Below are positions 25,739-42,990 of a stretch of DNA of 64,000 bases, piece by piece (within the stretch, counting starts at the first letter, position 1; each line of letters starts with the position of its first letter). The position numbers and the translations under genes are program-made. The stretch lies in the NCBI RefSeq assembly GCF_002216795.1, contig NZ_CP022316.1:2445205-2509204 (forward strand). Direction: 5' to 3'. The notes below the pieces were generated by a model, which worked only from the letters and a program-made list of their open reading frames with translations, did no database searches and was not told the DNA's origin. Source of the stretch: Brachybacterium avium (GTDB lineage Bacteria > Actinomycetota > Actinomycetes > Actinomycetales > Dermabacteraceae).

Positions 25739-27238
25739 TCAGAAGCGCGCGAACTCCCGCACCCACGCCGCCTCGGACTGCACGGGCCGTCCGGGCACCA
25801 GCGCGCCGTCGGCCACGAAGCCCTCCTCGCGCCCGGCCAGCTCCCCGGCCAGCAGTTCGCGAAGACCTGCCAGCTCCTCCGCGTGCTCCGCCGAGTCGGC
25901 GAGGTCCCGCTCCTCGTGCGGATCGGCCTCGAGATCGAAGAGCTGTTCGTGCCCGTCGCCGGAGAACCACACGTACTTGAAGCGCTCGGAGCGGATCCAC
26001 TGCATCGAGTGACGCCCCAGCGAGCCGATCAGATGCTCCCCGTGCAGATGGTCGCGCACCGTGCCGCCGGCCGTCGCCGCACGCAGATCGCCGCCGTCCA
26101 GACCCTCCGGCACCTCGACGCCGGCGAGCCCCAGCATCGTCGGCATCAGGTCCCGCAGCTCGGCGATCCCGGCGACCTCTCCCGGCGCTCCCCAGCCCTC
26201 CCGCCAGCGCGGCGGGACATGCATCACCAGCGGCACCCGGGCGGAGCCCTCGTATCCCACGGACTTCCGGTACATGTCGTGATCGCCCATCATGTCGCCG
26301 TGGTCGGAGACGAACACGATCACGGTGTCCTCGAGCAGGCCCTGATCCGAGAGCGTCTCCTTCAGCCGGTTCAGCTGCAGGTCGATGAACTCGATCGATC
26401 CGTAGTAGCCGGCCCGCACCTGCTGGTGGGTGCTCTCCTTCTGCGCCCCGAACTCCGCCTCGGAGCCGAAGTCGTGGCGGTGCTCGTCGAACCGGACGAC
26501 CCAGTCGCCCATCGCCCGCCGGGGGGACCGGCGATCGCGGTACTTGTCCCACAGCCACTGCGGGGGATCGAACGGTGCATGCGGCCGATGGAAGGACATG
26601 TAGAGGAAGAACGGTCGGGTCGGATCGCGCCGTTCGAGGAAGCGGAACGACTCATCGGCCACCCAGCGGGTGGGGTGCAGCCGCTCCTGACGCTCCCAGG
26701 GCCGGGCCGTCATCGCATTGCACCCGATCCCCGTCTCCTGGTAGTCGGCACGCGGATCACCGGTCTCGCGACGGAGGAACTCCACGTAGTCGTCGATCCG
26801 GGCCGACGGGCCGCGGCTGAGCTGCCGTGAGGTGTGCAGGAATCCGTCGTGCAGGAGCACCTCGTCGAAGCCGCACCGCGCGCGATCGGGGAACACGTGC
26901 ATCTTCCCCACGCCGAAGGTCTGGTACCCGGCCTCGCCCAGCGTGGACTGCAGCGTCACCGGATATGCATCGGGGAAGGAGATCCCTTCCCGGTAGCCGT
27001 AGCGACCGTGCAGGGCGGGGGACTTCCCGGTGAACATCGCGACCCGCGCGGGAACGCACGTCGGGGTGGCGGAATAGGCCCGGGTGAATCGGTATCCGCC
27101 CCGCGCCATGTCGTCGAGGTTCGGGGTGTCGATGTGGTCGTTGCCGGCGACGCCCATCGCATCGGCGCGCATCTCGTCGACGCAGACCAGGATGATGTGG
27201 GGTCGTTCGTAGGAGGGGGTGGTCACGGCAGCGGTCAA
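25739..27238 (-). CDS. Cys-type sulfatase
   Basis: HIILVCVDEMRADA... with the C-V-P-A-R motif (TPTCVPARVAMFTGK). TTG start at 27238 (overlapping the permease stop) or GTG at 27229. The ORF extension to 27652 is antisense to the permease. Confidence 0.8.
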   Translation of the reverse strand: MTAAVTTPSYERPHIILVCVDEMRADAMGVAGNDHIDTPNLDDMARGGYRFTRAYSATPTCVPARVAMFTGKSPALHGRYGYREGISFPDAYPVTLQSTLGEAGYQTFGVGKMHVFPDRARCGFDEVLLHDGFLHTSRQLSRGPSARIDDYVEFLRRETGDPRADYQETGIGCNAMTARPWERQERLHPTRWVADESFRFLERRDPTRPFFLYMSFHRPHAPFDPPQWLWDKYRDRRSPRRAMGDWVVRFDEHRHDFGSEAEFGAQKESTHQQVRAGYYGSIEFIDLQLNRLKETLSDQGLLEDTVIVFVSDHGDMMGDHDMYRKSVGYEGSARVPLVMHVPPRWREGWGAPGEVAGIAELRDLMPTMLGLAGVEVPEGLDGGDLRAATAGGTVRDHLHGEHLIGSLGRHSMQWIRSERFKYVWFSGDGHEQLFDLEADPHEERDLADSAEHAEELAGLRELLAGELAGREEGFVADGALVPGRPVQSEAAWVREFARF

Positions 27239-28149
27239 CCTTTCACTGCGCCGGAGAAGGACTCGATGAAGTACTTCTGGAGAACGATGAATACGATGAT
27301 GATCGGCAGCAGGGCGATCGTCGACGCGGCCGACATCATGCCCCAGTCGCTGAAATACTGGTTCTGGAGGCTGTAGATGCCCACGGCGAGCGTGCGCAGA
27401 TCCGGCTGGGAGAGCGTGAGCACCAGGGGGAGCAGGAAGTCGTTCCAGGCGTGCATGAACTGCAGGATGACCGCAGTGGCGAGGACGGGTTTCGCCAATG
27501 GGAGGTAGACCTGCGCGAAGATGCGGAGGAACCCCGCACCGTCCATGGTCGCCGCCTCTTCGAGCTCTTTGGGGAGCTGCGCGAAATAGCCGGCGAAGAG
27601 GAGCACGACGATCACGCTCACGCCGCCCGCCTCGGCGAGCGTGATGCCCCACAGGCTGCCCGAAAGTCCGAGGCTGTCGATCAGGTCGAAGATCGGGATC
27701 ACGGTGTATCCCTGCGGGAGGAATACGACCAGTGCGAGCAGCGCGTAGATGACCTTCTTCCCCGGGAAGGTGTAGCGGCCGAGGACGTATCCGAGAAGGG
27801 CGTTCACGGTCACGGAGATCAGGATCGACATCCCGGTCACGAAGATCGTGTTCAGGAAATACCGGCCCATGTCGGCTTCGTGCCAGGCGCGGACATAGCT
27901 GTCCAGGTGGAGTGTCGAGGTGAACGGGTTCAAGGACCCGAAGATCTCCGCGTTCGACTTCAGCGAGCTGGAGAACACCCAGATGAAGGGGTAGACCCAG
28001 ACCAGCGCGATCGGCAGCAGGATGAAGATGCCGACGATCAGCGCGAGCCGTTCGGAGCGCTTGAGGCGCCGGCGGCGGGGCGAGGGCTGCGGCGCCTCTT
28101 CGGTCGCGGCGACTCCCGCGTCCGGCATCGCTGTGGTGTTCAGGCTCAT
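27235..28149 (-). CDS. carbohydrate ABC transporter permease (MalG-like)
   Basis: Start MSLNTTAMPD. 305 aa. The EAATMDGAGFLRIF motif is typical of sugar ABC permeases. Confidence 0.8.
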   Translation of the reverse strand: MSLNTTAMPDAGVAATEEAPQPSPRRRRLKRSERLALIVGIFILLPIALVWVYPFIWVFSSSLKSNAEIFGSLNPFTSTLHLDSYVRAWHEADMGRYFLNTIFVTGMSILISVTVNALLGYVLGRYTFPGKKVIYALLALVVFLPQGYTVIPIFDLIDSLGLSGSLWGITLAEAGGVSVIVVLLFAGYFAQLPKELEEAATMDGAGFLRIFAQVYLPLAKPVLATAVILQFMHAWNDFLLPLVLTLSQPDLRTLAVGIYSLQNQYFSDWGMMSAASTIALLPIIIVFIVLQKYFIESFSGAVKG

Positions 28150-29120
28150 CGGTCGAGCCTCGCTCTCTGATCGGCGACGAGTTTCAGCGCCCAGGCCTGC
28201 AGCAGGGCGATCAGCAGGGTGGCGAGTCCGAAGAAGCAGCCTGCCGCAGAGGCGTAGCCGAGGCGTGGTATCCCTCCGGCGGCATCCGGTGCGAAGGCGG
28301 TGCGGAAGATATATACCTCCACGACCTCCGAGGAGTAGTACGGGCCACCACCGGTCAACGCCTGGATCAGGGCGAAGGCGTGCAGGTTCTCGTTCGCGGT
28401 GAGGATCACGATGATCACCGCGAAGGGGATCAGGATCGGCAGGGTGATCTTGATGAGCTGCTGGACGGCGCCGGCCCCGTCGACCTCGGCAGCCTCGTAG
28501 TACTCCGACGGCACGGTCTGCAGCGCAGCGAGCCAGTAGATGAGGGTCATCCCGAAGTTCTTCCACGTATGGAGCAGCAGTGCGCTCCACAGTGCCAGGT
28601 GCGGATCTGACAGGAACTCGATCGGGGTGTCGGTGAGCCCAGTGCTCTTGAGGAAGAAGGCGATCGGCCCGTTGCTGGGGGAGAGGACGAAGGTGAGCAC
28701 GACGCCGATGACCGAGGCGGCCGCCATCACCGGCAGGAAGAACACCGTACGGAAGAAGGTCGAGAGTCTGCCGCGGATGATGTTGTTCAGGACGATCGCG
28801 AGGATCAGTGCGAGCGCGACGCGCAGCGGGACCCCGATGAGGACGAAGACCATCGAACGGCCGAAGGATCCCCAGAACATCCCGTCGCCGAGGAGCTCGC
28901 GGTAGTTGGACAGGCCCACGAAGCTCTTGGCATCGCTGAACCCGTTCCACTGCGTGAGGGAGAAGTACCAGGAGGCGCCCATCGGGTAGAAGACGAACAT
29001 GGCGGTCAGCACCATGCCGGGGATGATGAAGAGATAGATCCAGAACAGATCACCGCGGCGCGCGCGCACCCGCCGGGCGGGCGCGCGCCGACGAGGCGGC
29101 GAGAGGGCGGTCGAGGTCAT
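28146..29120 (-). CDS. carbohydrate ABC transporter permease (MalF-like)
   Basis: Start MTSTALSPP. 325 aa, 6 TM. EAAEVDGAGAVQQLIKITLP motif. Confidence 0.8.
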   Translation of the reverse strand: MTSTALSPPRRRAPARRVRARRGDLFWIYLFIIPGMVLTAMFVFYPMGASWYFSLTQWNGFSDAKSFVGLSNYRELLGDGMFWGSFGRSMVFVLIGVPLRVALALILAIVLNNIIRGRLSTFFRTVFFLPVMAAASVIGVVLTFVLSPSNGPIAFFLKSTGLTDTPIEFLSDPHLALWSALLLHTWKNFGMTLIYWLAALQTVPSEYYEAAEVDGAGAVQQLIKITLPILIPFAVIIVILTANENLHAFALIQALTGGGPYYSSEVVEVYIFRTAFAPDAAGGIPRLGYASAAGCFFGLATLLIALLQAWALKLVADQRARLDR

Positions 29121-29121
29121 C

Positions 29122-30657
29122 TCAGCCCTCGAGCTCGTCGTAGTCCTGCGCCGTGTAGTCGAGGCTCGGATCCCAGTTCGGGAACTGGAGCTGAGAGATG
29201 TCGACGTCCGCACCTTCGGTCTGTGCGGCGTCGAAGGCCTTCTCCATCGCCTCGTCGAGACGCGAATCAAGGTCGGACAGCGCTGCCTCCGCGTCGCTGA
29301 TCTGGCCGGTCAGGATCCCCTCGATGGTCCCCGCGATGCCGGGGTCGGTGGCCTGGAGGTTGAGCTTGACGACCCCGGCGTGCTCGCTGCGGATCTCGAA
29401 CTGCGGGCAGGCGCGCATGTAGGTGGCCGCGAGATCGGCGACCAGCTTGGCCCTCGGGTTGAGCGCGGAGGTGTCGGCGGAGGAGTTCGCCTCCTCGATC
29501 GTGGACTGGAAGAAGCCCTCGGTGAGCTCCACCATCGCCCGCTGCCCCTCGAGCGACCCCATGAACTTGATGACGGCTGCGGCGGCATCCGTGTTCGTGC
29601 TGTCGGCGTACAGCCAGGACATGTTTGCCCCGGTCTCCCGGAACGGGATGGTGTATTCGCTGCCGTCGGGGGAGGGCAGGGGGAGGATCGTGTACTCGAA
29701 ATCGGGATAGTCCTTGGCCCACTGCGAGATGTCCCACGGCCCGTTGAGGGAGATCCCGGCCAGTCCGGAGGGGAACTGGGCGCGAGCGTCCGCGTCCTTC
29801 AGCGTGAGGTATCCGGGGACGAAGGAGCCGTCATCGATCATCGAGCGCACGAAGTCCAGGGCCTCGAGGAACTCCGGTGCGGAGTACTCGTACTTCCCGG
29901 TCCGCATGTTCATGCCTTCGGAGTTGCCCAGCCAGCCCGCGGTGTTCGCGAGGTTCGCGATCACGATGTCCAGGTGATCGGAGGTCGAGAGGATTCCCGG
30001 CGTGCCCGAGGCGGTGATCTCCTTGGCCAGGGACCGGAGGTCGTCCCAGGTGGACACTGATTCCACGGGGGTCGACACGCCGGCGGCCTCGGCCGCTTCA
30101 TGGGAGATGTATTGGGTGATGTCCAAGCGCCGGGTCGAGTTCATCGGCCAGCTGTAGACCTTGCCGTCGAAGACGTGCACGCCGTTGATCAGTGCGGTGT
30201 CGGGGAATCCCGCCTTCCACTCCGCGAAGTCGGGAATCGCGTCATCGAGGGGCTGGACCCAGCCTTCGCTGATCGCGGACTCGGCCGGGACGTTCTGCGG
30301 CAGCGCGAAGACGTCCGGCGCTGAGCCGTTCCGGATCCCCAGCGGCACCACCTGATTGACCTGGTCCCATCCCGAACCGTCGTACTGGACCTGGATCTCG
30401 GGGAACTGCTCGCCGAAGCTGGTGATCACCGGATCGATGAACAGTGCCTTGAGGTCGCCGGAGTCCATCCAGCTCAGCGCCGTGGCCTGTGAGGCATCTG
30501 CGTCGAAGTCGAAGGAGAAGTCCTCGGACCCGGCGGCGACCTCCTCGGCACCGGTGCCGGAACCGGTCTCGACGGAGCACGCGCTCAGACCGGCCGCGAG
30601 CGCTGCCGCGCCACCGATCAGGGAGCGACGACGGAATCGGGGGGTGCTGACGGTCAT
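29122..30657 (-). CDS. extracellular solute-binding lipoprotein (oligosaccharide ABC SBP, family 1)
   Basis: 511 aa. Tat/lipobox N-terminus (RRRSLIGGAAALAAGLSAC). Large SBP typical of oligosaccharide transporters. Confidence 0.8.
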   Translation of the reverse strand: MTVSTPRFRRRSLIGGAAALAAGLSACSVETGSGTGAEEVAAGSEDFSFDFDADASQATALSWMDSGDLKALFIDPVITSFGEQFPEIQVQYDGSGWDQVNQVVPLGIRNGSAPDVFALPQNVPAESAISEGWVQPLDDAIPDFAEWKAGFPDTALINGVHVFDGKVYSWPMNSTRRLDITQYISHEAAEAAGVSTPVESVSTWDDLRSLAKEITASGTPGILSTSDHLDIVIANLANTAGWLGNSEGMNMRTGKYEYSAPEFLEALDFVRSMIDDGSFVPGYLTLKDADARAQFPSGLAGISLNGPWDISQWAKDYPDFEYTILPLPSPDGSEYTIPFRETGANMSWLYADSTNTDAAAAVIKFMGSLEGQRAMVELTEGFFQSTIEEANSSADTSALNPRAKLVADLAATYMRACPQFEIRSEHAGVVKLNLQATDPGIAGTIEGILTGQISDAEAALSDLDSRLDEAMEKAFDAAQTEGADVDISQLQFPNWDPSLDYTAQDYDELEG

Positions 30658-30733
30658 GGATGCCTCCTTGCATCGCCGTGCGGCCCGAGCCGGTCACGGA
30701 CGTCCGTGGTATTTCGATTAACCATCACCTACA

Positions 30734-31828
30734 ATGTGTGATGTGAACCACTCTGTCAAGACCATGTCGAGCAGCGATCAGAAAGGTTCGGCTCGGCGGC
30801 CGACCCAGGCGGACGTCGCACGCCTGGCAGGCGTGTCCACCGCGACCGTCTCCCACGTGCTGAGCGGCCGCGCCGACCGCAAGGGAGCCGGGAACGCGCA
30901 GACCCGAGCCAGGGTCGAGCGCGCGATGAAGCAACTCGATTACCGCCCGAACTGGGCAGGGCGCGCACTGCGCCGGCAGCGCACCGGCCTCGTCGGTGCG
31001 CTCGTCTCAGCGGGAGGCAATCCGTGGCGGGACAGCCTGATCACCGTGGCGAAGCGGGAGCTCGCGAAGCGCTCGCTCGACCTCGTCGTCTTCCCCGACG
31101 TCGGGGAGGACGAGGCGACCGACAGGCTCGCGGAACTCCTGGACCGCGGTGCGGTGGACGCCTGCTTCACGGTGCATCTGGAGGAGGCGGGCGAGGTGGC
31201 GGAACGCCTGGAACGGTGCCCGATCCCGAGTGTGGCCTTCGCCGAAGGGGACGCCGCCGGCCTCCCGACCGTGCGGCACGGCTATGCGGAGGCCGCGGCG
31301 GAGGCCGCCGTCCGACTGCGCGACAGAGGGGTGCGACGATTCATGATCGCTACCGAGGCGATGGGGCCGGGGCACAGCCTCTGGCGCGACGTCGTCGACC
31401 CGATCCGCACGGCTCTGGCAGGGGGCGATGCCGACGAACTGAGGGCCGAGCACCTCGAGATCGACTACCGGATCAGCGCCGATCTCGGTCCCCTGGACTG
31501 GGCGTCCCTCGAGGCTGCCGGACCGGAGGACCCGATCGTGCTGATGTGCTCGAGTGACCGGTTGGCGATCCAGATCGCGGCCGAATGCGAACGACGGTCG
31601 ATCGACATCGGGCGGGCCGTCGGGGTCGTGGGCCGCGGCGATATCGCCGAGGCCGCAGAGCGCCGCATCCCGCTGAGCACACTGGGCACGTCGGAGACCA
31701 GGTACGAGGACGTCTTCGCAGCTCTCGCGGCGTCGGCCGAGAGCGGCGAGAAGCTCGAGTCGGGCTGGGAGTTCCCCTGGCATGTGATCGAGCGGGCGTC
31801 CACCGCCGGGATCGGCCGGCAGGCATGA
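30734..31828 (+). CDS. LacI-family transcriptional regulator
   Basis: HTH (TQADVARLAGVSTATVSHVLSG). Divergent from the SBP-permease-sulfatase operon. Alternative start at 30764. Confidence 0.85.
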   Translation: MCDVNHSVKTMSSSDQKGSARRPTQADVARLAGVSTATVSHVLSGRADRKGAGNAQTRARVERAMKQLDYRPNWAGRALRRQRTGLVGALVSAGGNPWRDSLITVAKRELAKRSLDLVVFPDVGEDEATDRLAELLDRGAVDACFTVHLEEAGEVAERLERCPIPSVAFAEGDAAGLPTVRHGYAEAAAEAAVRLRDRGVRRFMIATEAMGPGHSLWRDVVDPIRTALAGGDADELRAEHLEIDYRISADLGPLDWASLEAAGPEDPIVLMCSSDRLAIQIAAECERRSIDIGRAVGVVGRGDIAEAAERRIPLSTLGTSETRYEDVFAALAASAESGEKLESGWEFPWHVIERASTAGIGRQA

Positions 31829-31831
31829 GCG

Positions 31832-31862
31832 AGGGCCCGGCGCATTCGCTGCGCCGGGCCCT
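31832..31862. terminator. perfect 13-bp stem hairpin between convergent genes
   Basis: agggcccggcgca-ttcgc-tgcgccgggccct. Lies between the LacI stop (31828) and the SPFH stop (31878). Confidence 0.5.
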
Positions 31863-31877
31863 CGGGGCGGTCCGGTC

Positions 31878-32995
31878 TCAGAACTGGTCGGCAGATCCCG
31901 GATGAGCCCACGGCGGCTGTGAGTCCTGGGTCTGCTGCCGCGCCTCACGGGCACGCTGCTCGGCCTGCTGCCGAGCTCGCGTCGCGCGCTGCTCCTCCTG
32001 CTCGCGCAGCTGATCGGCGGAGACGCGCCGACGGTCCTCGACCTCATCCGCGTCGGCGTCCTTCGACGCCTCGGCGGCGGCCTGTGACTGCAGCATCGCT
32101 GTGCGGATCTCGTCCCCATGGAGCCGACGGCGCCGGGGTTCGAGGGCAGGTACAGCACGTTGGAGCGGGAGTTCCGGGCCACGTCCTGCATGGTGTCGAA
32201 GTACTGCGTCATCAGCAGCAGCTGCTCGGCGGAGTTCTCGATGCCCACCTTGCGCAGCATCTCGTACTGCTCGGCGATGCCCAGTGCGATCGCCTTGCGC
32301 TGGGCGGCGACGCCCTCACCCTGGAGGCGCTTGGACTCGGCCTCGGCCTCGGCCTGGGTGACGCGCTTGATCTTGTCCGCCTCGGCGAGCGACTGGGCCG
32401 CGACCCGGTCGCGCTGGGCGGCGTTGATGGAGTTCATCGAGTCGCGCACCCGCTGGTCCGGGGAGATGTCCTGGACCAGGGTGTTGATGATGTAGAAGCC
32501 GAACTCCCGCATGCGCTCCGAGAGCGTGGACTCGACGCTGCGGGCGATGTCGTCCTTCGACTCGAAGGCCTGGTCCAGCTCGAGGCCGGACAGCGCCGAG
32601 CGCACGGTGTCGAACACGTAGGAGCGGATCTGCGCCTCGGGGTTCGACAGCTTGTAGTACGCGTCGATGACCTGCTCGTCGCGGATCTTGTACTGGACCG
32701 CGACCGGCACGTTGACGAACACGTTGTCCTTGGTCTTGGACTCGATGTTCACCTCGAGCTGCTGCACGCGCAGCGAGACCGGTCGGGTGGTGTTGTCGAT
32801 GAACGGGGTCTTGAAGTTCAGGCCCGCCTGCGCGACCCGCTTGAACTTGCCGAACCTCTCGACGATGATCGCTTCCTGCGTGTGCACCGTGAACATCAGC
32901 GAGGTGCGCAGCCCGCCGAACAGCAGCGCCGCGACGACCACGACGAGTATCAGGACGCCCACGATGACGACCAGGGCGACGATTGCGCCTTCCAT
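31878..32995 (-). CDS. SPFH/band-7 (stomatin/prohibitin-like) membrane protein; apparent frameshift near 32100-32200
   Basis: N-terminal TM plus SPFH domain in one frame (32995 down to about 32100). The charged coiled-coil tail (EIRTAMLQSQAAAEASKDADADE...) is in another frame, ending at 31878. The main frame otherwise runs 800 nt antisense into the LacI gene. Confidence 0.6.
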
Positions 32996-33057
32996 GTGTT
33001 CCCCTTTTCTTGGTGATGAAGTCTGTGACCTACGCTACCAACCGAGCCGGTTGGTCG

Positions 33058-33546
33058 TCACCGCAGACCGAGCTCGCTCTCGATCCGTCGGGCGATCCGC
33101 ACGGGCGGCACCAGCGGGGCATAGCGGCGCAGCACCTTCCCCTCGCCGTCGATGAGGAACTTGGTGAAGTTCCAGGCGATGCGGCCGCCGATCACCCCGG
33201 CCTTCTGCGCGCACATCCACTTCCACAGCGGGTGCGCGGTGGGCCCGTTGACGTCGATCTTCGAGAACAGCGGGAAGCGGACGTCGTAGGTGGAGGCGCA
33301 GATCTCCTTGGTCTCCTCGTCGGTGCCGGGATCCTGGTGGAACTGGTCCGAGGGGAAGCCGAGCACCGTGAAGCCGTGCTCCGCGTAGCGGTCCGTCAGC
33401 TCCTGCAGGCTCGTCAGCTGGGGGGTGAAGGCGCACTCGGTGGCGATGTTGACGACGAGGACCAGACGTCCGCGGTACTCACTCATCTCCCGATGCTCAC
33501 CATCGATGGTGAGAGCGGAGAAGTCGTGGAAAGTCGACTCGGACAT
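33058..33546 (-). CDS. glutathione peroxidase family protein
   Basis: 162 aa. LVVNIATECAFTPQ (peroxidatic Cys), FPSDQFHQDPG, WNFTKFLID. Confidence 0.85.
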   Translation of the reverse strand: MSESTFHDFSALTIDGEHREMSEYRGRLVLVVNIATECAFTPQLTSLQELTDRYAEHGFTVLGFPSDQFHQDPGTDEETKEICASTYDVRFPLFSKIDVNGPTAHPLWKWMCAQKAGVIGGRIAWNFTKFLIDGEGKVLRRYAPLVPPVRIARRIESELGLR

Positions 33547-33668
33547 GGTCTCCTGACTCGGCTAGTAGGTGACGTGCGCCTCCATCGTAGAACGCAGTCC
33601 TGGGCGTGCGCCGGGACCGCGGGCTCAGGCTCTGCCTTCTGCCTGGGCTCCTGCCGCTCGTTCCTCGC

Positions 33669-34580
33669 TCAGGCGAGGAACGCATCGACCTCGTCGCGGG
33701 TCGGGGCGCTCTCGGTCCCGCGCCGGGTCACAGCGATCGCCGCGGCGGCGTTCGCGCGGGTGGCGGCGGATTCCCAGTCCGCACCGAGGGCACGCTCTGC
33801 CAGCAGCACCCCGGTATGGGTGTCACCGGCGCCGTTGGTGTCCACTGGCGTCTGCGGGAAAGCGGGGATCTGGGTGCCACGACCGTGGTGGAAGACCAGG
33901 CATCCCCGCTCCCCGTCCCGCACGACCACCACCGCGCCGGGGCGCAGGCGCCGGCGGAGCGCCTCCGGGGTGTCCTCGAGCGCATCGAGATCGGTCAGCG
34001 CTCGCGCCTCGTCGGCGTTCGAGGTCCACACCGTGGTGCAGGCCAGCACCCGCTGCCGGACCTCGCGGGGGAAGTCGGCGAAGGGGGCGCCGGGATCGAG
34101 CACCACATCCACGTCGGCCGGCAGTGTCTCGAGGAACTCCAGCAGCGGCTCCCGGGTGGGCTCGAACAGGCTGTACCCGGAGATGCACACCAGGTCCCCC
34201 ACCTGTGGCTCGAGGGTCGCGAGCGAGGTGGCGGTGATCTGCCGCTCCGCCCCGTACACGGTGAGGAACGTCCGTTCGGCCGACGGTTCCAGCAGCACCG
34301 TGCAGTACCCGGTATCGGCGTCGGGGCGCGGCGCATCGGAGAGGGCGACCCCGTCCCGGGCCAGCGCCTCCCGGATCAGGTCGCCGTACGGACCGGTGCC
34401 GTGCGCCCCGCCGTGCACCGCCACTGCCCCGGTGCGGGCAGCCGCGATCAGTGTGGTCACCGCGCCGCCCGCGTACTTCTGCTCACGGCGCACGTTGGCG
34501 TTCCCGCCGCGCGGCGGGAGCTCGTCGATCTCGAGGATGAGGTCGACGAGCGCCTGGGCGGTGTGGAGCACGCGGGACAT
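33669..34580 (-). CDS. PfkB-family carbohydrate kinase (ribokinase-like)
   Basis: Start MSRVLHTAQALVDL. 303 aa. C-terminal DTNGAGDTHTG anion-hole motif. Confidence 0.8.
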   Translation of the reverse strand: MSRVLHTAQALVDLILEIDELPPRGGNANVRREQKYAGGAVTTLIAAARTGAVAVHGGAHGTGPYGDLIREALARDGVALSDAPRPDADTGYCTVLLEPSAERTFLTVYGAERQITATSLATLEPQVGDLVCISGYSLFEPTREPLLEFLETLPADVDVVLDPGAPFADFPREVRQRVLACTTVWTSNADEARALTDLDALEDTPEALRRRLRPGAVVVVRDGERGCLVFHHGRGTQIPAFPQTPVDTNGAGDTHTGVLLAERALGADWESAATRANAAAAIAVTRRGTESAPTRDEVDAFLA

Positions 34581-39355: not shown

Positions 39356-41197
39356 TCAGAAGGGCGGCGTGGTCTCGTCGAGGGTGGGCCCGGGAGGGAT
39401 GATCCGGCGGGCATGACGGCCGGGGTAGGCCTTCGCGAACGCGTCGGCGCGCTGCTCCGCGACCCGTTCCGTGCGGGGTCGGGCCTTCTCCTCGGCGTGG
39501 AGACGCGTCGCGTCCGCGTGGGCGCGCTGGTGGACTCGCCAGGCTCGTTCGAGTGCTTCGACGGAGTGTGGTGTGAGGAGATCCGTGTTCTCTCTGGTGC
39601 GGGTCCGGACTTCGCCGTCGAGGACCCAGGACGTCTCCCTTGGCCCTGCGGTGGTGGAGCCGTCCCCGCCGCCGGGATCGTCGTCCGGGTTGCGGGTGGG
39701 GTCGATCAGTCCGGCGGTCTTGAGCTTGTGGTGCAGCCAGCAGAGCCGGTGGAGGTTCCACAGGCTGGTCTGGCCGCCCTTGCCGGGATGGTCGTGGTCG
39801 TACTCGATGATGTGGTCGTCCTCCGCCGCGATCACGGTGGCCCGGGTGCAGCCGGGCGCGGCGCAGACGGCGTGGCGTAGCCGCAGCTGGAGCCGCATCT
39901 GTGCAGTCGGGTGATAGGTCTGGGCGGTCACGGGAAGGTGGGCGCCGCTGATCGGATCGGTCAGGATCCGCTGCCAGGTGCTCTCCCCGGCCGCGAGCAG
40001 TCGTGCCTGCTCTGCCGGGACCGGTGTCATCCCCTCCAGCATCGCGGGCGCATCATCGACACCCAGCAGCGTGGTGGCGGGGACGGTGACCAGGATCTTG
40101 TACGGGCTCGAGGTCTCCTGGACGGGGTCGATGTCCAGGACCGAGTGGACCAGGATCGCGTATCGCAGCGTGCGCAACGAGAGGGCTCTGCCGCGCTCGT
40201 GGAGGTTCTCATCGATGTCGAAGGGCAGCGGTCCTTCGACCCCGTCCTCCAGACCGGCACGCTGGGCCTTCTGGACGGTGCGGGAGGCGATGTCGAGCCG
40301 GTGGGCGAGGGCCTGGATCTCCGGGATCGGACCCGTGACGTACAGCGAGGCGGTGCCGGTCTCGGTGTTGACGTCCACGATCTCCACGTTTCGGGACTCC
40401 GACGGCGGAGTGGGGACCGTTCCCGCGACCGCCAGGGCGACGGCGAGGGTGACCTGCTTGTCGAAGGTCGCCTTCGACACCGACGGGATCTCCACGCCGG
40501 ACATATGGGCGTCGACCTGCCGGACCTGGTCCTCGGACAGGCGACGGACGTGCCGGATCAGGGAGTGGTGCCAGGCCTCGGGCAGGTCCCCTGCGCGCAC
40601 GTGCTCGAAGGTCAGCGGCATCCACTCCACGGCGGTGTGGGCGTCGGTGACCTGCACCTGAGCATGGAAGCAGCTGCACCGCAGCCCGGTTGCGACCTTC
40701 AGCGCCGTCACATCCGCGTCATCCAGCAGCCCCTGCACGGCGGGGTCCTCTCGGAAGAACGTCGAGAGCTGACGGAGCTGATGGGCATAGAGCCGGGCAC
40801 GGGTCTTCATCGTCTGATGCATCGAGAGCACCCGAGCTGCTTCGAGGCTGCCGGGCTCGACCTCCTCCAGGATGTACTCCTCGGACAGTGCGCGCCGCGC
40901 CCGCGCCCGCCATGTCGGGGAGTCGGCGGAGGAGGGGGCGACACGAGCGGTGCGGACATGTCCGGGATCCTCAGCGGCGGCCTCGCCGGCCGGGTCGTGG
41001 CCCTCGACAGCGGGATCCCGAGGCCTGTCGACGTCGTCGTGCGACCTGCCGACCGCGTCGTGCGTCCCGCCGGAGGCGTCTGTGCGACCGAACTCCTGGT
41101 CCTCGAACTCACCCACCGTCGCCACCCCCTCCCCGCGCCAGAGCACTTCTCGAACCGCATCTGCGATATCCCTCAACCGTATTCTGTGCGCAACCAA
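39356..41197 (-). CDS. DUF222 domain protein with C-terminal HNH endonuclease (REP13E12-type)
   Basis: C-terminal HNH (CAAPGCTRA...DHIIEYDH...NLHRLCWLHHKLK). True start uncertain; an internal M at about 40822 is possible. Confidence 0.65.
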   Translation of the reverse strand: MVAHRIRLRDIADAVREVLWRGEGVATVGEFEDQEFGRTDASGGTHDAVGRSHDDVDRPRDPAVEGHDPAGEAAAEDPGHVRTARVAPSSADSPTWRARARRALSEEYILEEVEPGSLEAARVLSMHQTMKTRARLYAHQLRQLSTFFREDPAVQGLLDDADVTALKVATGLRCSCFHAQVQVTDAHTAVEWMPLTFEHVRAGDLPEAWHHSLIRHVRRLSEDQVRQVDAHMSGVEIPSVSKATFDKQVTLAVALAVAGTVPTPPSESRNVEIVDVNTETGTASLYVTGPIPEIQALAHRLDIASRTVQKAQRAGLEDGVEGPLPFDIDENLHERGRALSLRTLRYAILVHSVLDIDPVQETSSPYKILVTVPATTLLGVDDAPAMLEGMTPVPAEQARLLAAGESTWQRILTDPISGAHLPVTAQTYHPTAQMRLQLRLRHAVCAAPGCTRATVIAAEDDHIIEYDHDHPGKGGQTSLWNLHRLCWLHHKLKTAGLIDPTRNPDDDPGGGDGSTTAGPRETSWVLDGEVRTRTRENTDLLTPHSVEALERAWRVHQRAHADATRLHAEEKARPRTERVAEQRADAFAKAYPGRHARRIIPPGPTLDETTPPF

Positions 41198-41228
41198 TAC
41201 TGAAGGGTCACCATGAAATGGGGATGAA

Positions 41229-41294
41229 TCTGTGGATAACTCCGCTGTGTGGAGGAATGGTTCTGTGGATAACCACCAGGTGTGGAGGAACGAT
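41229..41294 (+). repeat. two tandem 33-bp units, each TCTGTGGATAAC-N6-GTGTGGAGGAA (contains TGTGGATAA, the reverse complement of DnaA box TTATCCACA)
   Basis: Direct tandem duplication read from the sequence. Further TGTGGNGGA copies at about 41407 and 41505. Locally AT-richer than the genome. Confidence 0.7.
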
Positions 41295-41534
41295 CCGCGC
41301 AGACGACTCGCGAGTGACCCGCAAGAACGATGTCTGAGCAGGTCGAGAGGCGTTGTGGGCCGATATCGCGCCTGCCTGCCGTGCGGACTGTCGAGAAAGC
41401 CTCCGGTGTGGCGGAAACCCGGTTCGCAGAGGGAGGAAAAGGGTGATGAACGGCGCCTCGATCGAAGTCAAGAGGGGTCCGGAAAATGTGCAAAAAGCGG
41501 AGTGTGGAGGAAAGGTGCGCGGGACTTTCTGTCG

Positions 41535-41582
41535 TCGGCACCTTTCCTACTCGGCACCTTTCCTCTTCGGCACCTATCCTCC
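41535..41582 (+). repeat. three tandem 16-bp repeats TCGGCACCT(T/A)TCCTnn, followed by CCGGCTsCTCC x2
   Basis: tcggcacctttcctac / tcggcacctttcctct / tcggcacctatcctcc, about 150 nt upstream of the AAA ATPase start. Confidence 0.7.
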
Positions 41583-41733
41583 CCGGCTGCTCCCCGGCTC
41601 CTCCCCGTCGGCGCCTTCCCCTCCGGTGCAGCGCCGCGCCGGGCCGCCGCACCGGAGCCCTCCCGCGACGCCTGCCCGCGCCGCCCACACGCGAGGCCTG
41701 TACATACACCGACATACAGAGCACCATGGCTCC

Positions 41734-42990
41734 ATGGCGATCTCTCCCTCGAACCGCATGCCGCCCTCGCACCGCACGACATCCACCAGCCCCGCGGCCG
41801 CCCGCACCATCTCTGGGGCCAACCCCTTCACCCCCGGCTTCGGCCTCACTCCGATGATCCTCGCCGGACGCGAGGTGGCGATCGACGAGTTCACCGCGGC
41901 GCTCGCCGGGAACATCCCCGAGGCGCGGGCGATCCTGATCTCCGGCGCCCGCGGCTCCGGCAAGACCGTGCTGCTGACCGAGTTCCGGGAGCTCGCGCTC
42001 GAGGCGGGCTGGACCGATCTGCGTATGCACACCTCCTCCACCTCGCTCATCGAGGAGCTGCGCAGCCAGGCCATCGCCCGCCTGCGGGAGATGGATCCGG
42101 AGGCCGAGATCTCCCGGCTCACCTCCGCGCGGGCGTTCAACGTCGGCGCCTCCCGGGATATCGTCCGGCGCTACGAGGGGGAGGGGGAGGTGCTCACCAC
42201 GGTGCTGGACCGACTCGCCCAGCTGTGCGACGAGGACGGCGGCGGTCTGCTGATCACCCTGGACGAGCTGCAGTCGGTGGACCGCGACCAGCTGCACGCC
42301 CTCACCCAGCACGTGCAGGACCTCATCGGCTCCGGCCATGCGGTCGCCTTCATCGCTGCCGGGGTGCGCCCCGGAGTCGACGCCCTGCTGGACCACGAGC
42401 GCACCACCTTCCTGCGCCGGGCGCACCGGATCGAGGTGGGCAGCGTCGACGTCGGCACGGCGGCGGAGGCGATCCGCATGACCATCGCCGACACCGCGCG
42501 GACGATCACCCCGGAGGCGACGGTGCTGGCCGGCGAGATCTCGCGGGGCTATCCGTACCTGATCCAGCTCATCGGGTCGAAGGCCTGGCAGAACAGCGGT
42601 GACGCGGAGACCATCGAGATCGAGGACGTGCGCGGCGGGCGGGAATCCGTGATCGCGGCGATGATCAAGAACGTCCACGGCCCGGCGCTGCGGGGGCTGA
42701 GCTCCCGCAAGCGCGAATACCTCCACGCGATGCTCGAGGACGAGGGCCCCTCCGCCGTCGGCGACATCGCCCGGCGAATGGACATCGACCCCCGCAACCA
42801 GTCCACCTACCGCGAGCGGCTCATCGAGGAGGAGCTGATCCGACCAGCCGGGCGCGGCTTCGTCGAGTTCGCGCTGCCCTACCTCGGCGACGCGCTGCGG
42901 CACGAGGCGCGGGAGGGAGTGGGGGCCGACGTCGAACCCGATAAGGGAGTTAGTCGTTCCCATCGGGCCCGGCGCAAGGGCCGACCATAG
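41734..42990 (+). CDS. AAA-family ATP-binding protein with C-terminal winged-helix (Arch_ATPase/DUF4143-like)
   Basis: Start MAISPSNR. Walker A ILISGARGSGKTVLL. Walker B LLITLDELQ. C-terminal wHTH (SAVGDIARRMDIDPRNQSTYRERLIEEELI). The minus-strand ORF 41173-43314 opposite is an artefact. Confidence 0.65.
   Translation: MAISPSNRMPPSHRTTSTSPAAARTISGANPFTPGFGLTPMILAGREVAIDEFTAALAGNIPEARAILISGARGSGKTVLLTEFRELALEAGWTDLRMHTSSTSLIEELRSQAIARLREMDPEAEISRLTSARAFNVGASRDIVRRYEGEGEVLTTVLDRLAQLCDEDGGGLLITLDELQSVDRDQLHALTQHVQDLIGSGHAVAFIAAGVRPGVDALLDHERTTFLRRAHRIEVGSVDVGTAAEAIRMTIADTARTITPEATVLAGEISRGYPYLIQLIGSKAWQNSGDAETIEIEDVRGGRESVIAAMIKNVHGPALRGLSSRKREYLHAMLEDEGPSAVGDIARRMDIDPRNQSTYRERLIEEELIRPAGRGFVEFALPYLGDALRHEAREGVGADVEPDKGVSRSHRARRKGRP

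Follow-up and report, generated by a model that had tools for sequence, protein, structure and literature searches.

A DnaA-box-like array in Brachybacterium avium is one copy of a conserved, probably regulatory module upstream of DUF222/13E12-like HNH genes

In a 64,000-nucleotide stretch of the Brachybacterium avium chromosome (NZ_CP022316.1, positions 2,445,205 to 2,509,204; hereafter the window, numbered from its first letter), an array of DnaA-box-like 9-mers lies between a DUF222/13E12-like HNH endonuclease gene and a divergently transcribed AAA+ ATPase gene. The array is very probably a regulatory module of the divergent HNH promoter and, on this reading, one of the modules that precede every Brachybacterium paralogue of that gene family. 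The fuller statement, in which this HNH-promoter module is bound by DnaA, is one that we put forward tentatively, as somewhat short of an even prospect. What we establish here is the anatomy of the module, its conservation, its linkage to HNH genes and its phasing with the promoter. It is a genus-wide cis-regulatory module of the HNH family that was previously undescribed; we found no description of such a motif in the DUF222/HNH and REP13E12 literature.

The preliminary description of this region had reported two perfect copies of TGTGGATAA 33 bp apart in a duplicated 33-bp unit, further TGTGGAGGA-type copies in one orientation, a local drop in GC content and a clustering unlikely by chance, and all four points hold. 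The two TGTGGATAA copies (41231 and 41264) are the only ones in the window, as are the three copies of TGTGGAGGA (41248, 41281 and 41503), and every box copy of the array is on the + strand. The exact pattern TGTGGAYAA occurs twice in the window, both times in the array, compared with 0.08 expected on both strands, and two occurrences were reached in 1 of 100 shuffles. GC content is 0.50-0.53 at 41150-41300, against about 0.72 for the window.

The 33-bp direct duplication (41221-41253 and 41254-41286, 76% identity) holds two complete bipartite units, each pairing a perfect box 2 with a box 1 that matches the DnaA box at 7/9 positions. The same duplication is present at loci L001, L002, L019 and L038 and at the B. 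faecium paralogue L156. Box 3 lies 3 bp from box 2a in the same orientation. Further out, a degenerate second unit, TGTGCAAAA-N7-TGTGGAGGA, occupies 41487-41511 and contributes the third TGTGGAGGA copy. The first half of this distal module (block C, below) is degenerate in the window and reads TGTGGATAAC in most other species; the stringent E. coli DnaA consensus is TT(A/T)TNCACA, which TTTTGCACA of block C still fits. A + strand copy of TGTGGCGGA at 41407 was considered as an array member and set aside as a chance occurrence: TGTGGNGGA alone is not enriched in the window (4 seen, 2.3 expected), and the copy is retained in L001 only.

The limits first flagged for the intergenic interval needed correction. 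The start motif (V/M)G(E/D)FE of the HNH protein is kept, with its ribosome-binding site, in 17 orthologues, and the upstream TTG at 41197 is not conserved. Since the gene thus starts at GTG 41116 and not at TTG 41197, the divergent intergenic region is 41117-41733 (617 bp).

Conservation is stronger evidence for the array than the chance statistics. The gene order penicillin-binding protein, old yellow enzyme reductase, isochorismatase, HNH(-), ATPase(+), DUF1648, MerR-PP2C(-), GNAT, beta-propeller is common to more than 10 species of Brachybacterium, and the closest locus is that of B. vulturis (L001, 95% amino-acid identity on the ATPase). The proposal that 39.3-43.0 kb is an insertion is therefore not borne out by comparison with relatives in the genus. 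Alignment of 18 upstream regions revealed four conserved blocks, A to D, in otherwise free-drifting sequence, and the bipartite unit TGTGGATAAC-N7-TG(T/G)GGAGGAA is kept across the genus. In 263 kb of Brachybacterium DNA, a set gathered by protein similarity, all 29 copies of TGTGGAYAA sit in this intergenic region and in one orientation. A scan of metagenome contigs with the pattern TGTGGATAAC-N(6-8)-TGKGGAGGA gave about 50 high-GC matches with a shared extended consensus in many flanking contexts, and single metagenomes yielded up to 9 different copies of the module.

What most of these copies have in common is an HNH gene. A divergent HNH/DUF222 gene of 500-600 aa starts less than 700 nt 5' of the array in 54 of the 66 loci with enough 5' sequence, Pfam gave HNH and DUF222 matches among these genes, and the contexts are unrelated to one another (a tRNA-Met with a pentapeptide-repeat gene, convergent ispE-ksgA-rsmI, recG-rsmD, an NYN-domain gene). 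In B. faecium, arrays are found at 0.705-0.716 Mb, the orthologous locus, as well as beside a paralogue (3.574-3.586 Mb), and the array also occurs at a second B. vulturis paralogue and at a B. hainanense gene. L015 has the ATPase and block D and lacks both the HNH gene and the boxes, and L011, with no HNH gene, has one relic unit left. The 10-mer GTT(A/G)TCCACA is invariant upstream of HNH paralogues that share only 29-42% protein identity, which argues for one common trans-acting factor. The array is thus one member of a dispersed family and not the single datA-like site proposed earlier. The other possibility raised at that time, a dispersed repeat family without DnaA binding, was right about the dispersal, but the copies are dispersed as a conserved 5' module of HNH paralogues.

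The one-orientation rule has two exceptions among the loci, against 54 with the standard divergent arrangement. In L160 (B. hainanense, 2700-2990) and in L031, one additional bipartite unit is found upstream; it is inverted and points toward the HNH gene.

The window HNH protein itself, which has a C-terminal HNH motif, gives a weak Pfam HNH match (E=0.018) and no DUF222 match. Homologues at 54-65% identity to it carry PF02720. The names in use among homologues are HNH endonuclease, DUF222 and 13E12 repeat family protein, and one Brachybacterium paralogue bears the last of these. The family is multi-copy, with two paralogues retrieved from the B. faecium genome and a second paralogue from B. 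vulturis.

Read in the direction of the HNH gene, the layout runs from a weak box T(T/C)CTCC(A/C)CA over 8 bp to the perfect DnaA box GTT(A/G)TCCACA, often over a further 3 bp to the third box TCATCCCCA, and then over 21 bp to the promoter, ribosome-binding site and start codon. The predicted promoter is either of PafBC type (tGTCgg-N10-tAnnnT) or a LexA box overlapping the -10 element. The orthologous B. faecium locus L157 displays the whole arrangement, TTCCTCCACA-N8-TTATCCACA-TAT-TCATCCCCA-N21-TGTCGG-N10-TATTCT, with TGTCGG-TGGTGACGGG-TATTCT as its PafBC-type promoter. The published PafBC consensus is tGTCgg(N10)tA(N3)T, with tGTCgg at -28 to -23 (PMC8635444). The full motif is present in the orthologues L157, L039 and L005 and in the paralogues L042, L064 and L091, and a GAAC-N4-GTTC LexA-type box overlapping a TAAAAT -10 element is found in L076, L073, L053, L068 and L159. 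Among 90 segments downstream of a box, 9 contain PafBC-like motifs, whereas shuffles gave 0.38 and the opposite strand none. For LexA-like boxes the count is 5 in 90 segments, compared with 0.67 in shuffles.

TGTCGG lies at 21 nt or at 32-33 nt from the perfect 10-mer. In the longer spacing, the additional turn is taken up by box 3 or, in some copies, by a degenerate remnant of it, so that 21 nt always separate the promoter-proximal box from the -26 element. The window keeps this spacing: box 3, 21 nt, 41192-41197, N10 and 41176-41181 follow one another exactly as in L157 and L039. A DnaA-regulated promoter had been one of the options in the preliminary description, and it is the one that the evidence favours, given that in orthologues and paralogues alike a fixed 21 bp separates the array from the PafBC-type -26 element that belongs to the divergent HNH gene; the DnaA part of that option stands as a candidate binder.

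From this layout we propose that the box-bound protein, positioned around -50 to -80 and on one face of the helix, would modulate a damage-responsive promoter, and that expression of the HNH family could in this way be coupled to replication status. In M. tuberculosis, 13E12 genes are LexA-bound and/or RecA_NDp-bearing and are induced by DNA damage (PMC3381160). By analogy, and in keeping with the promoter types found here, we infer that the HNH promoters of Brachybacterium would be damage-inducible. A further step is more speculative and seems to us rather unlikely as a whole: that a possibly selfish DUF222-HNH family recruited genuine DnaA boxes, set at constant spacing to its PafBC- or LexA-type promoters, so that DnaA and the damage regulators would jointly control the nucleases while the dozens of dispersed boxes act as a distributed sink for DnaA.

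Table 1. Features of the HNH-ATPase intergenic region and the two flanking genes (window coordinates).
Feature	Position	Strand	Sequence	Remarks
Box 2a	41231-41239	+	TGTGGATAA	Perfect DnaA box (TTATCCACA); kept in 15/17 orthologous loci and ~50 metagenomic copies
Box 2b	41264-41272	+	TGTGGATAA	Second perfect box, product of the 33-bp unit duplication
Box 1a	41248-41256	+	TGTGGAGGA	Second half of bipartite unit; extended conserved form TG(T/G)GGAGGAAnGGT
Box 1b	41281-41289	+	TGTGGAGGA	Box 1 of the duplicated unit
Box 3	41219-41227	+	TGGGGATGA	TCATCCCCA in HNH direction; 7/9 match to DnaA box
Distal module (block C)	41466-41517	+	AGTCAA-N15-TGTGCAAAA-N7-TGTGGAGGAAAGGTG	From alignment of 18 upstream regions
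Tandem 16-mers	41535-41587	+	TCGGCACCTTTCCTCC	3.3 copies, 86% matches; lineage-specific
Tandem 11-mers	41577-41607	+	TCCTCCCCGGC	2.8 copies; lineage-specific simple repeat
Block A	41162-41181			HNH-proximal
Block B			AATGGGGATGAAT-n-TGTGGATAAC-N7-TG(T/G)GGAGGAAnGGT	
Block C, general form				Second bipartite unit ~250 bp beyond block B, with TGTCAA before it
Block D, general form			CCTGTACA(T/C)ACA-nnn-ACA(T/C)ACA	Directly before ATPase start
Block D in the window	41697..41719	+	CCTGTACATACACCGACATACAG	Tandem (T/C)ACA(T/C)ACA repeat 15 nt before ATPase start; kept in all 18 loci
DUF222/13E12-like HNH endonuclease gene	39356..41116	-		586 aa; GTG start 41114-41116; GC content at third codon positions 0.86 in frame
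HNH ribosome-binding site	41122..41132	-	GGAGGGGGTGG	Purine-rich, conserved in orthologues
Conserved block just downstream of -10 hexamer	41162..41175	-	TGAGGGATATCGCA	Kept in L001, L002, L004-L006, L019
-10 hexamer of predicted HNH promoter	41176..41181	-	TACGGT (TANNNT)	Aligns with TATTCT of B. faecium and L039
PafBC-type -26 position	41192..41197	-	TTGGTT	Degenerate, in place of TGTCGG; no GTC triplet
AAA+ ATPase gene	41734..42990	+		418 aa; ATG 41734; C-terminal winged helix; Orc1/Cdc6-like predicted fold

The TGAGGGATATCGCA block, immediately downstream of the predicted -10 hexamer, is probably the transcription start or 5' untranslated region of the HNH gene; the start is predicted to lie about 7 nt past 41176 on the minus strand.

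DnaA is the leading candidate for the protein that binds the boxes, with a chance that we judge from the sequences to be nearly, though not quite, even. The box core is exactly TTATCCACA. Its commonest variant, TTGTCCACA (in L008, L010, L068, L076, L103 and L160), is what we take to be the usual actinobacterial DnaA box, and variation in the box falls mainly at positions 1-3 and 5, which DnaA tolerates. DnaA-like 9-mers in the same orientation occur only at offsets -17, 0 and +12, with none in the opposite orientation, and 22 of the 82 copies have, at the box 3 offset, a DnaA-like 9-mer that deviates at no more than 2 positions, compared with a median of 0 at other offsets. In E. coli, DnaA in vivo follows a double-box rule in which same-orientation boxes are 2-3 bp apart (PMC11317965), and the 3-bp gap between boxes 2 and 3 matches it.

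Several observations weigh against DnaA, or against parts of the proposed promoter. Box 1, the universal partner, sits at a gap of 8 bp, outside the 2-3-bp rule, and it is kept as GGAGGAA, preceded by TGTGG, TGGGG or TAGGG, and not as a DnaA box. Box 3 is recognisable in only 27% of the copies (the 22 of 82 above). Genome-wide mapping of DnaA in mycobacteria gave five sites, none of them at 13E12 genes (PMC7738170). All named organisms that bear the array are Brachybacterium, and there was no array at the single Kocuria DUF222-HNH gene that we checked; given this range, a genus-specific factor is an equally natural reading. On the promoter side, a recognisable PafBC or LexA motif is present in only 14 of the 90 segments, and the decay of the -26 element in the window to TTGGTT means that this copy may no longer be PafBC-dependent.

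It is a realistic, if doubtful, alternative that the HNH-promoter module is bound by another factor and that its match to the DnaA box is coincidental. Candidates would be a Brachybacterium-specific regulator (for example, a WYL or winged helix-turn-helix protein that recognises direct TG(T/G)GGA repeats at 17-bp intervals) or a domain conserved within the HNH/DUF222 proteins. In favour of such a factor, the conserved unit AAT-n-TGTGGATAAC-N7-TG(T/G)GGAGGAAnGGT exceeds a DnaA box, its second half is defined by GGAGGAA and not by CCACA, and its 17-bp period is unlike known DnaA arrays; the one-genus range of the named matches, the Kocuria gene without an array and the mycobacterial DnaA map point the same way. 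Autoregulation by the paralogues is unlikely, however, when the 10-mer is invariant at such low paralogue identity, and no candidate regulator gene is linked to the arrays. A coincidence would also have to account for a first half that is the exact canonical box, for a commonest variant that is the other canonical box, and for a third box at 3-bp spacing.

A distributed datA-like sink that titrates or inactivates DnaA and so tunes initiation, with the HNH link reduced to hitch-hiking, would fit the many copies per genome and the 2-5 same-orientation boxes in each; in B. subtilis, DnaA-box clusters outside oriC are reported to affect initiation (PMC3245932). We consider it improbable, however, as the 21-bp phasing with the HNH promoter is strict and the divergent orientation constant (54 loci, compared with 2 inverted), each site has one or two high-affinity boxes, and no IHF-like site was identified. 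It is very improbable that the units serve as promoters or ribosome-binding sites for a transcript directed away from the HNH gene, be it a small open reading frame, a small RNA or a leader for the downstream gene, with GGAGGAA as its Shine-Dalgarno sequence. A GTG or ATG does often follow GGAGGAA by 4-10 nt, and GTG 41514 of the window shares the reading frame of the ATPase gene; yet no small open reading frame is conserved, several units have no start codon at all, the ispE context has no gene downstream in that direction, the two halves are not complementary, and the segment from block C to the ATPase start varies widely between species. There was no sigma-70-like promoter and no Rfam match for such a transcript either: we found no sigma-70 promoters or intrinsic terminators in 41000-41900, and an Rfam scan of 40900-42000 for structured RNA gave only a below-threshold chance match.

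The preliminary description had also entertained the origin of a cryptic or integrated replicon; on this reading the Orc1/Cdc6-like ATPase would be the initiator, and the boxes and tandem repeats its iterons. The ATPase lends this some colour through its predicted fold, through homologues on 115 actinobacterial plasmids, through a homologue in Citricoccus that comes after parA-parB and beside an integrase, and through the short tandem repeats that precede the gene in all homologues examined. The boxes, however, do not follow the ATPase family and occur at HNH paralogues with no ATPase nearby. The 16-mers and 11-mers are indeed present as described, but among the 18 aligned upstream regions they are private to the window and its closest relative L001, which tells against their being iterons. 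There is no dnaA or dnaN and no AT-rich unwinding element (the lowest GC content in 100-bp windows is 0.50), the locus is chromosomal and syntenic across the genus, and the cumulative GC skew, suggested earlier as a check on the replicon, has no inflection at 41 kb in the window. This reading is extremely improbable, and for the box array it is largely refuted.

The chromosomal origin oriC was rejected on similar grounds: HNH and ATPase genes, and not dnaA/dnaN, adjoin the array, the lowest GC content is 0.50, and there is no cumulative-skew inflection at 41 kb. In three complete genomes, 0.66-0.74 Mb separate the orthologous locus from coordinate 1; in B. faecium, ssb-rpsR-rplI is near the other end of the record. 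A tblastn search with an M. tuberculosis DnaA query found no dnaA near any exact bipartite match.

Compared with known systems, the HNH-promoter module resembles the DnaA-box clusters of B. subtilis and the DnaA regulon of E. coli in that perfect boxes, TTATCCACA or TTGTCCACA, are arrayed in one orientation ahead of a promoter; as in the E. coli regulon, many module copies have a second box 3 bp away. A link of DnaA as transcription factor with DNA-repair and replication-stress genes also has precedent. Unlike those clusters, the module is dispersed 5' of a multi-copy HNH family and has named examples in one genus only, and its GGAGGAA partner half-site at an 8-bp gap has no counterpart among the DnaA arrangements described. 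At datA and DARS of E. coli, which govern the nucleotide state of DnaA, DnaA boxes likewise cluster away from oriC. Each of these loci is unique, has a defined box geometry and carries IHF or Fis sites, whereas the Brachybacterium element recurs at many promoters, has one or two strong boxes at each site and keeps a fixed phase with the promoter. Direct repeats beside an Orc1/Cdc6-like AAA+ winged-helix gene that also occurs on plasmids recall plasmid iteron origins and archaeal origin recognition boxes; unlike at such origins, only the block D repeats ((T/C)ACAYACA or CTAACA) track the ATPase, and the site is chromosomal and syntenic, with no unwinding element.

A parallel on the gene side is the 13E12 family of M. 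tuberculosis, also made up of multi-copy genes with DUF222 and HNH domains. Its promoters are alike by sequence, with tGTCgg-N10-tAnnnT or with GAAC-N4-GTTC overlapping the -10 element; the window copy differs in its decayed -26 element. The 13E12/PafBC accounts that we consulted, which are not an exhaustive literature search, mention no upstream array of DnaA-box-like sequences (PMC3381160, PMC8635444).

13E12/DUF222-HNH genes are abundant in Actinobacteria, M. tuberculosis included, and their function and regulation are obscure. In M. tuberculosis they are induced by damage and mark the breakpoints of large inversions (PMC3381160, PMC13157036). The module offers a concrete and cheaply testable hypothesis, namely that DnaA or a specific factor co-regulates HNH nucleases together with PafBC or LexA. 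If DnaA binds, its role as a replication-stress transcription factor would extend to Actinobacteria and to a repeat gene family, and truly recruited DnaA boxes would form a new link between DnaA, the LexA-independent damage response of actinobacteria and the 13E12 family. If it does not, the module would be a cautionary case of a perfect, conserved DnaA box that is not a DnaA site. In either event there is a lesson for annotation: in a high-GC genome, a cluster of DnaA boxes is not necessarily an origin.

The ATPase gene is a neighbour of the array and not part of it. Its product matches Pfam AAA_16 at 1.6e-14, and an AlphaFold2 model (mean pLDDT 84), with an AAA+ domain, a lid and a winged helix, gave 2qby_A, 2v1u_A and 1fnn_A as top Foldseek hits at E ~1e-11, with 1w5t_A at a TM score of 0.63. 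Against TIGR02928 it scores 17 bits, below the cut-off of 181, and RuvB and PABY2304 score similarly. Sequence searches of the PDB with the HNH protein and the ATPase returned P-loop-level matches only, and PADLOC gave nothing meaningful for these two proteins or for the DUF1648 protein.

The ATPase family is also found in Citricoccus, Tersicoccus, Corynebacterium and Arthrobacter. The boxes were absent upstream of the homologues that we examined in Citricoccus, Tersicoccus, B. muris, B. sp. EF45031 and plasmids, and we therefore rejected the idea that the box motif is tied to this family. All distant homologues examined, plasmid-borne ones among them, do carry a block-D-like repeat before the start (CTAACA-N5-CTAACA or GTACAC), and the tandem repeats of the homologues (GTACAYACA or CTAACA) are about 11 bp apart and 10-25 nt before the start codon. 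Because distant homologues keep this repeat without the boxes, block D belongs to the ATPase and the boxes do not. The protein may bind DNA and be autoregulated, or it may be a factor for plasmid maintenance or replication that became domesticated in the chromosome of Brachybacterium. We considered GTG 41514 as the start of an N-terminally extended ATPase and rejected it: both block D and the CCATGG start context are conserved, homology sets in past 41734, and the segment upstream differs greatly between species, in length as well as in sequence.

Each of the tandem 16-mers is an inverted copy of the GGAGGAAAGGTGC half-site flank, with 12/12 positions complementary to 41507-41518. A hairpin between block C and the 16-mers was rejected, as its z scores (-1.9 and -1.6) fall short of significance and the repeats lack conservation. 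A GC-rich inverted repeat (41621-41657; 18-nt arms, 83% complementary, 1-nt loop) is located between the tandem repeats and block D; it has no T-run and is common to the window and L001 only.

Several minor features concern the HNH gene itself. A 21-bp tandem repeat (41024-41089, 3.1 copies, 77% matches) lies inside its N-terminal coding part, which is poorly conserved; homology to most orthologues begins at about residue 60-100 of the 613-aa open reading frame counted from TTG 41197. In B. faecium (CP001643.1), the HNH paralogues L156 and L157, at 3.58 and 0.71 Mb, share 92% DNA identity over about 1.6 kb. The identity starts about 160 nt inside the coding region, and the 5' ends and upstream sequences are weakly similar (77% over 78 bp, in the box region). 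This pattern suggests gene conversion between HNH paralogues, as reported for M. tuberculosis 13E12 genes. The contigs of L001, L006 and L010 end inside the HNH gene just upstream of the ATPase, and such draft breaks are consistent with a multi-copy repeat left unresolved in assembly.

The 26-nt pattern also occurs in one conserved coding sequence of gut phage contigs of about 150 kb (GC ~0.37; the low-GC loci among L026-L155, e.g. L110-L155), where it reads ...TATGTGGATAACGTGAAATTTGGGGAGGA.... We rejected a viral origin for the module: the 46 matches in viral contigs, like those in low-GC metagenome sequence, come from one gut-phage coding sequence that fits the pattern by chance.

Elsewhere in the window, positions 26000-34000 have a lower GC content (0.63-0.69). 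Read by eye, the translations of its open reading frames seem to include products of sugar ABC-transporter genes together with a LacI-type regulator, a glutathione peroxidase and an SPFH/band-7 protein, and by this reading the segment looks like ordinary accessory metabolism.

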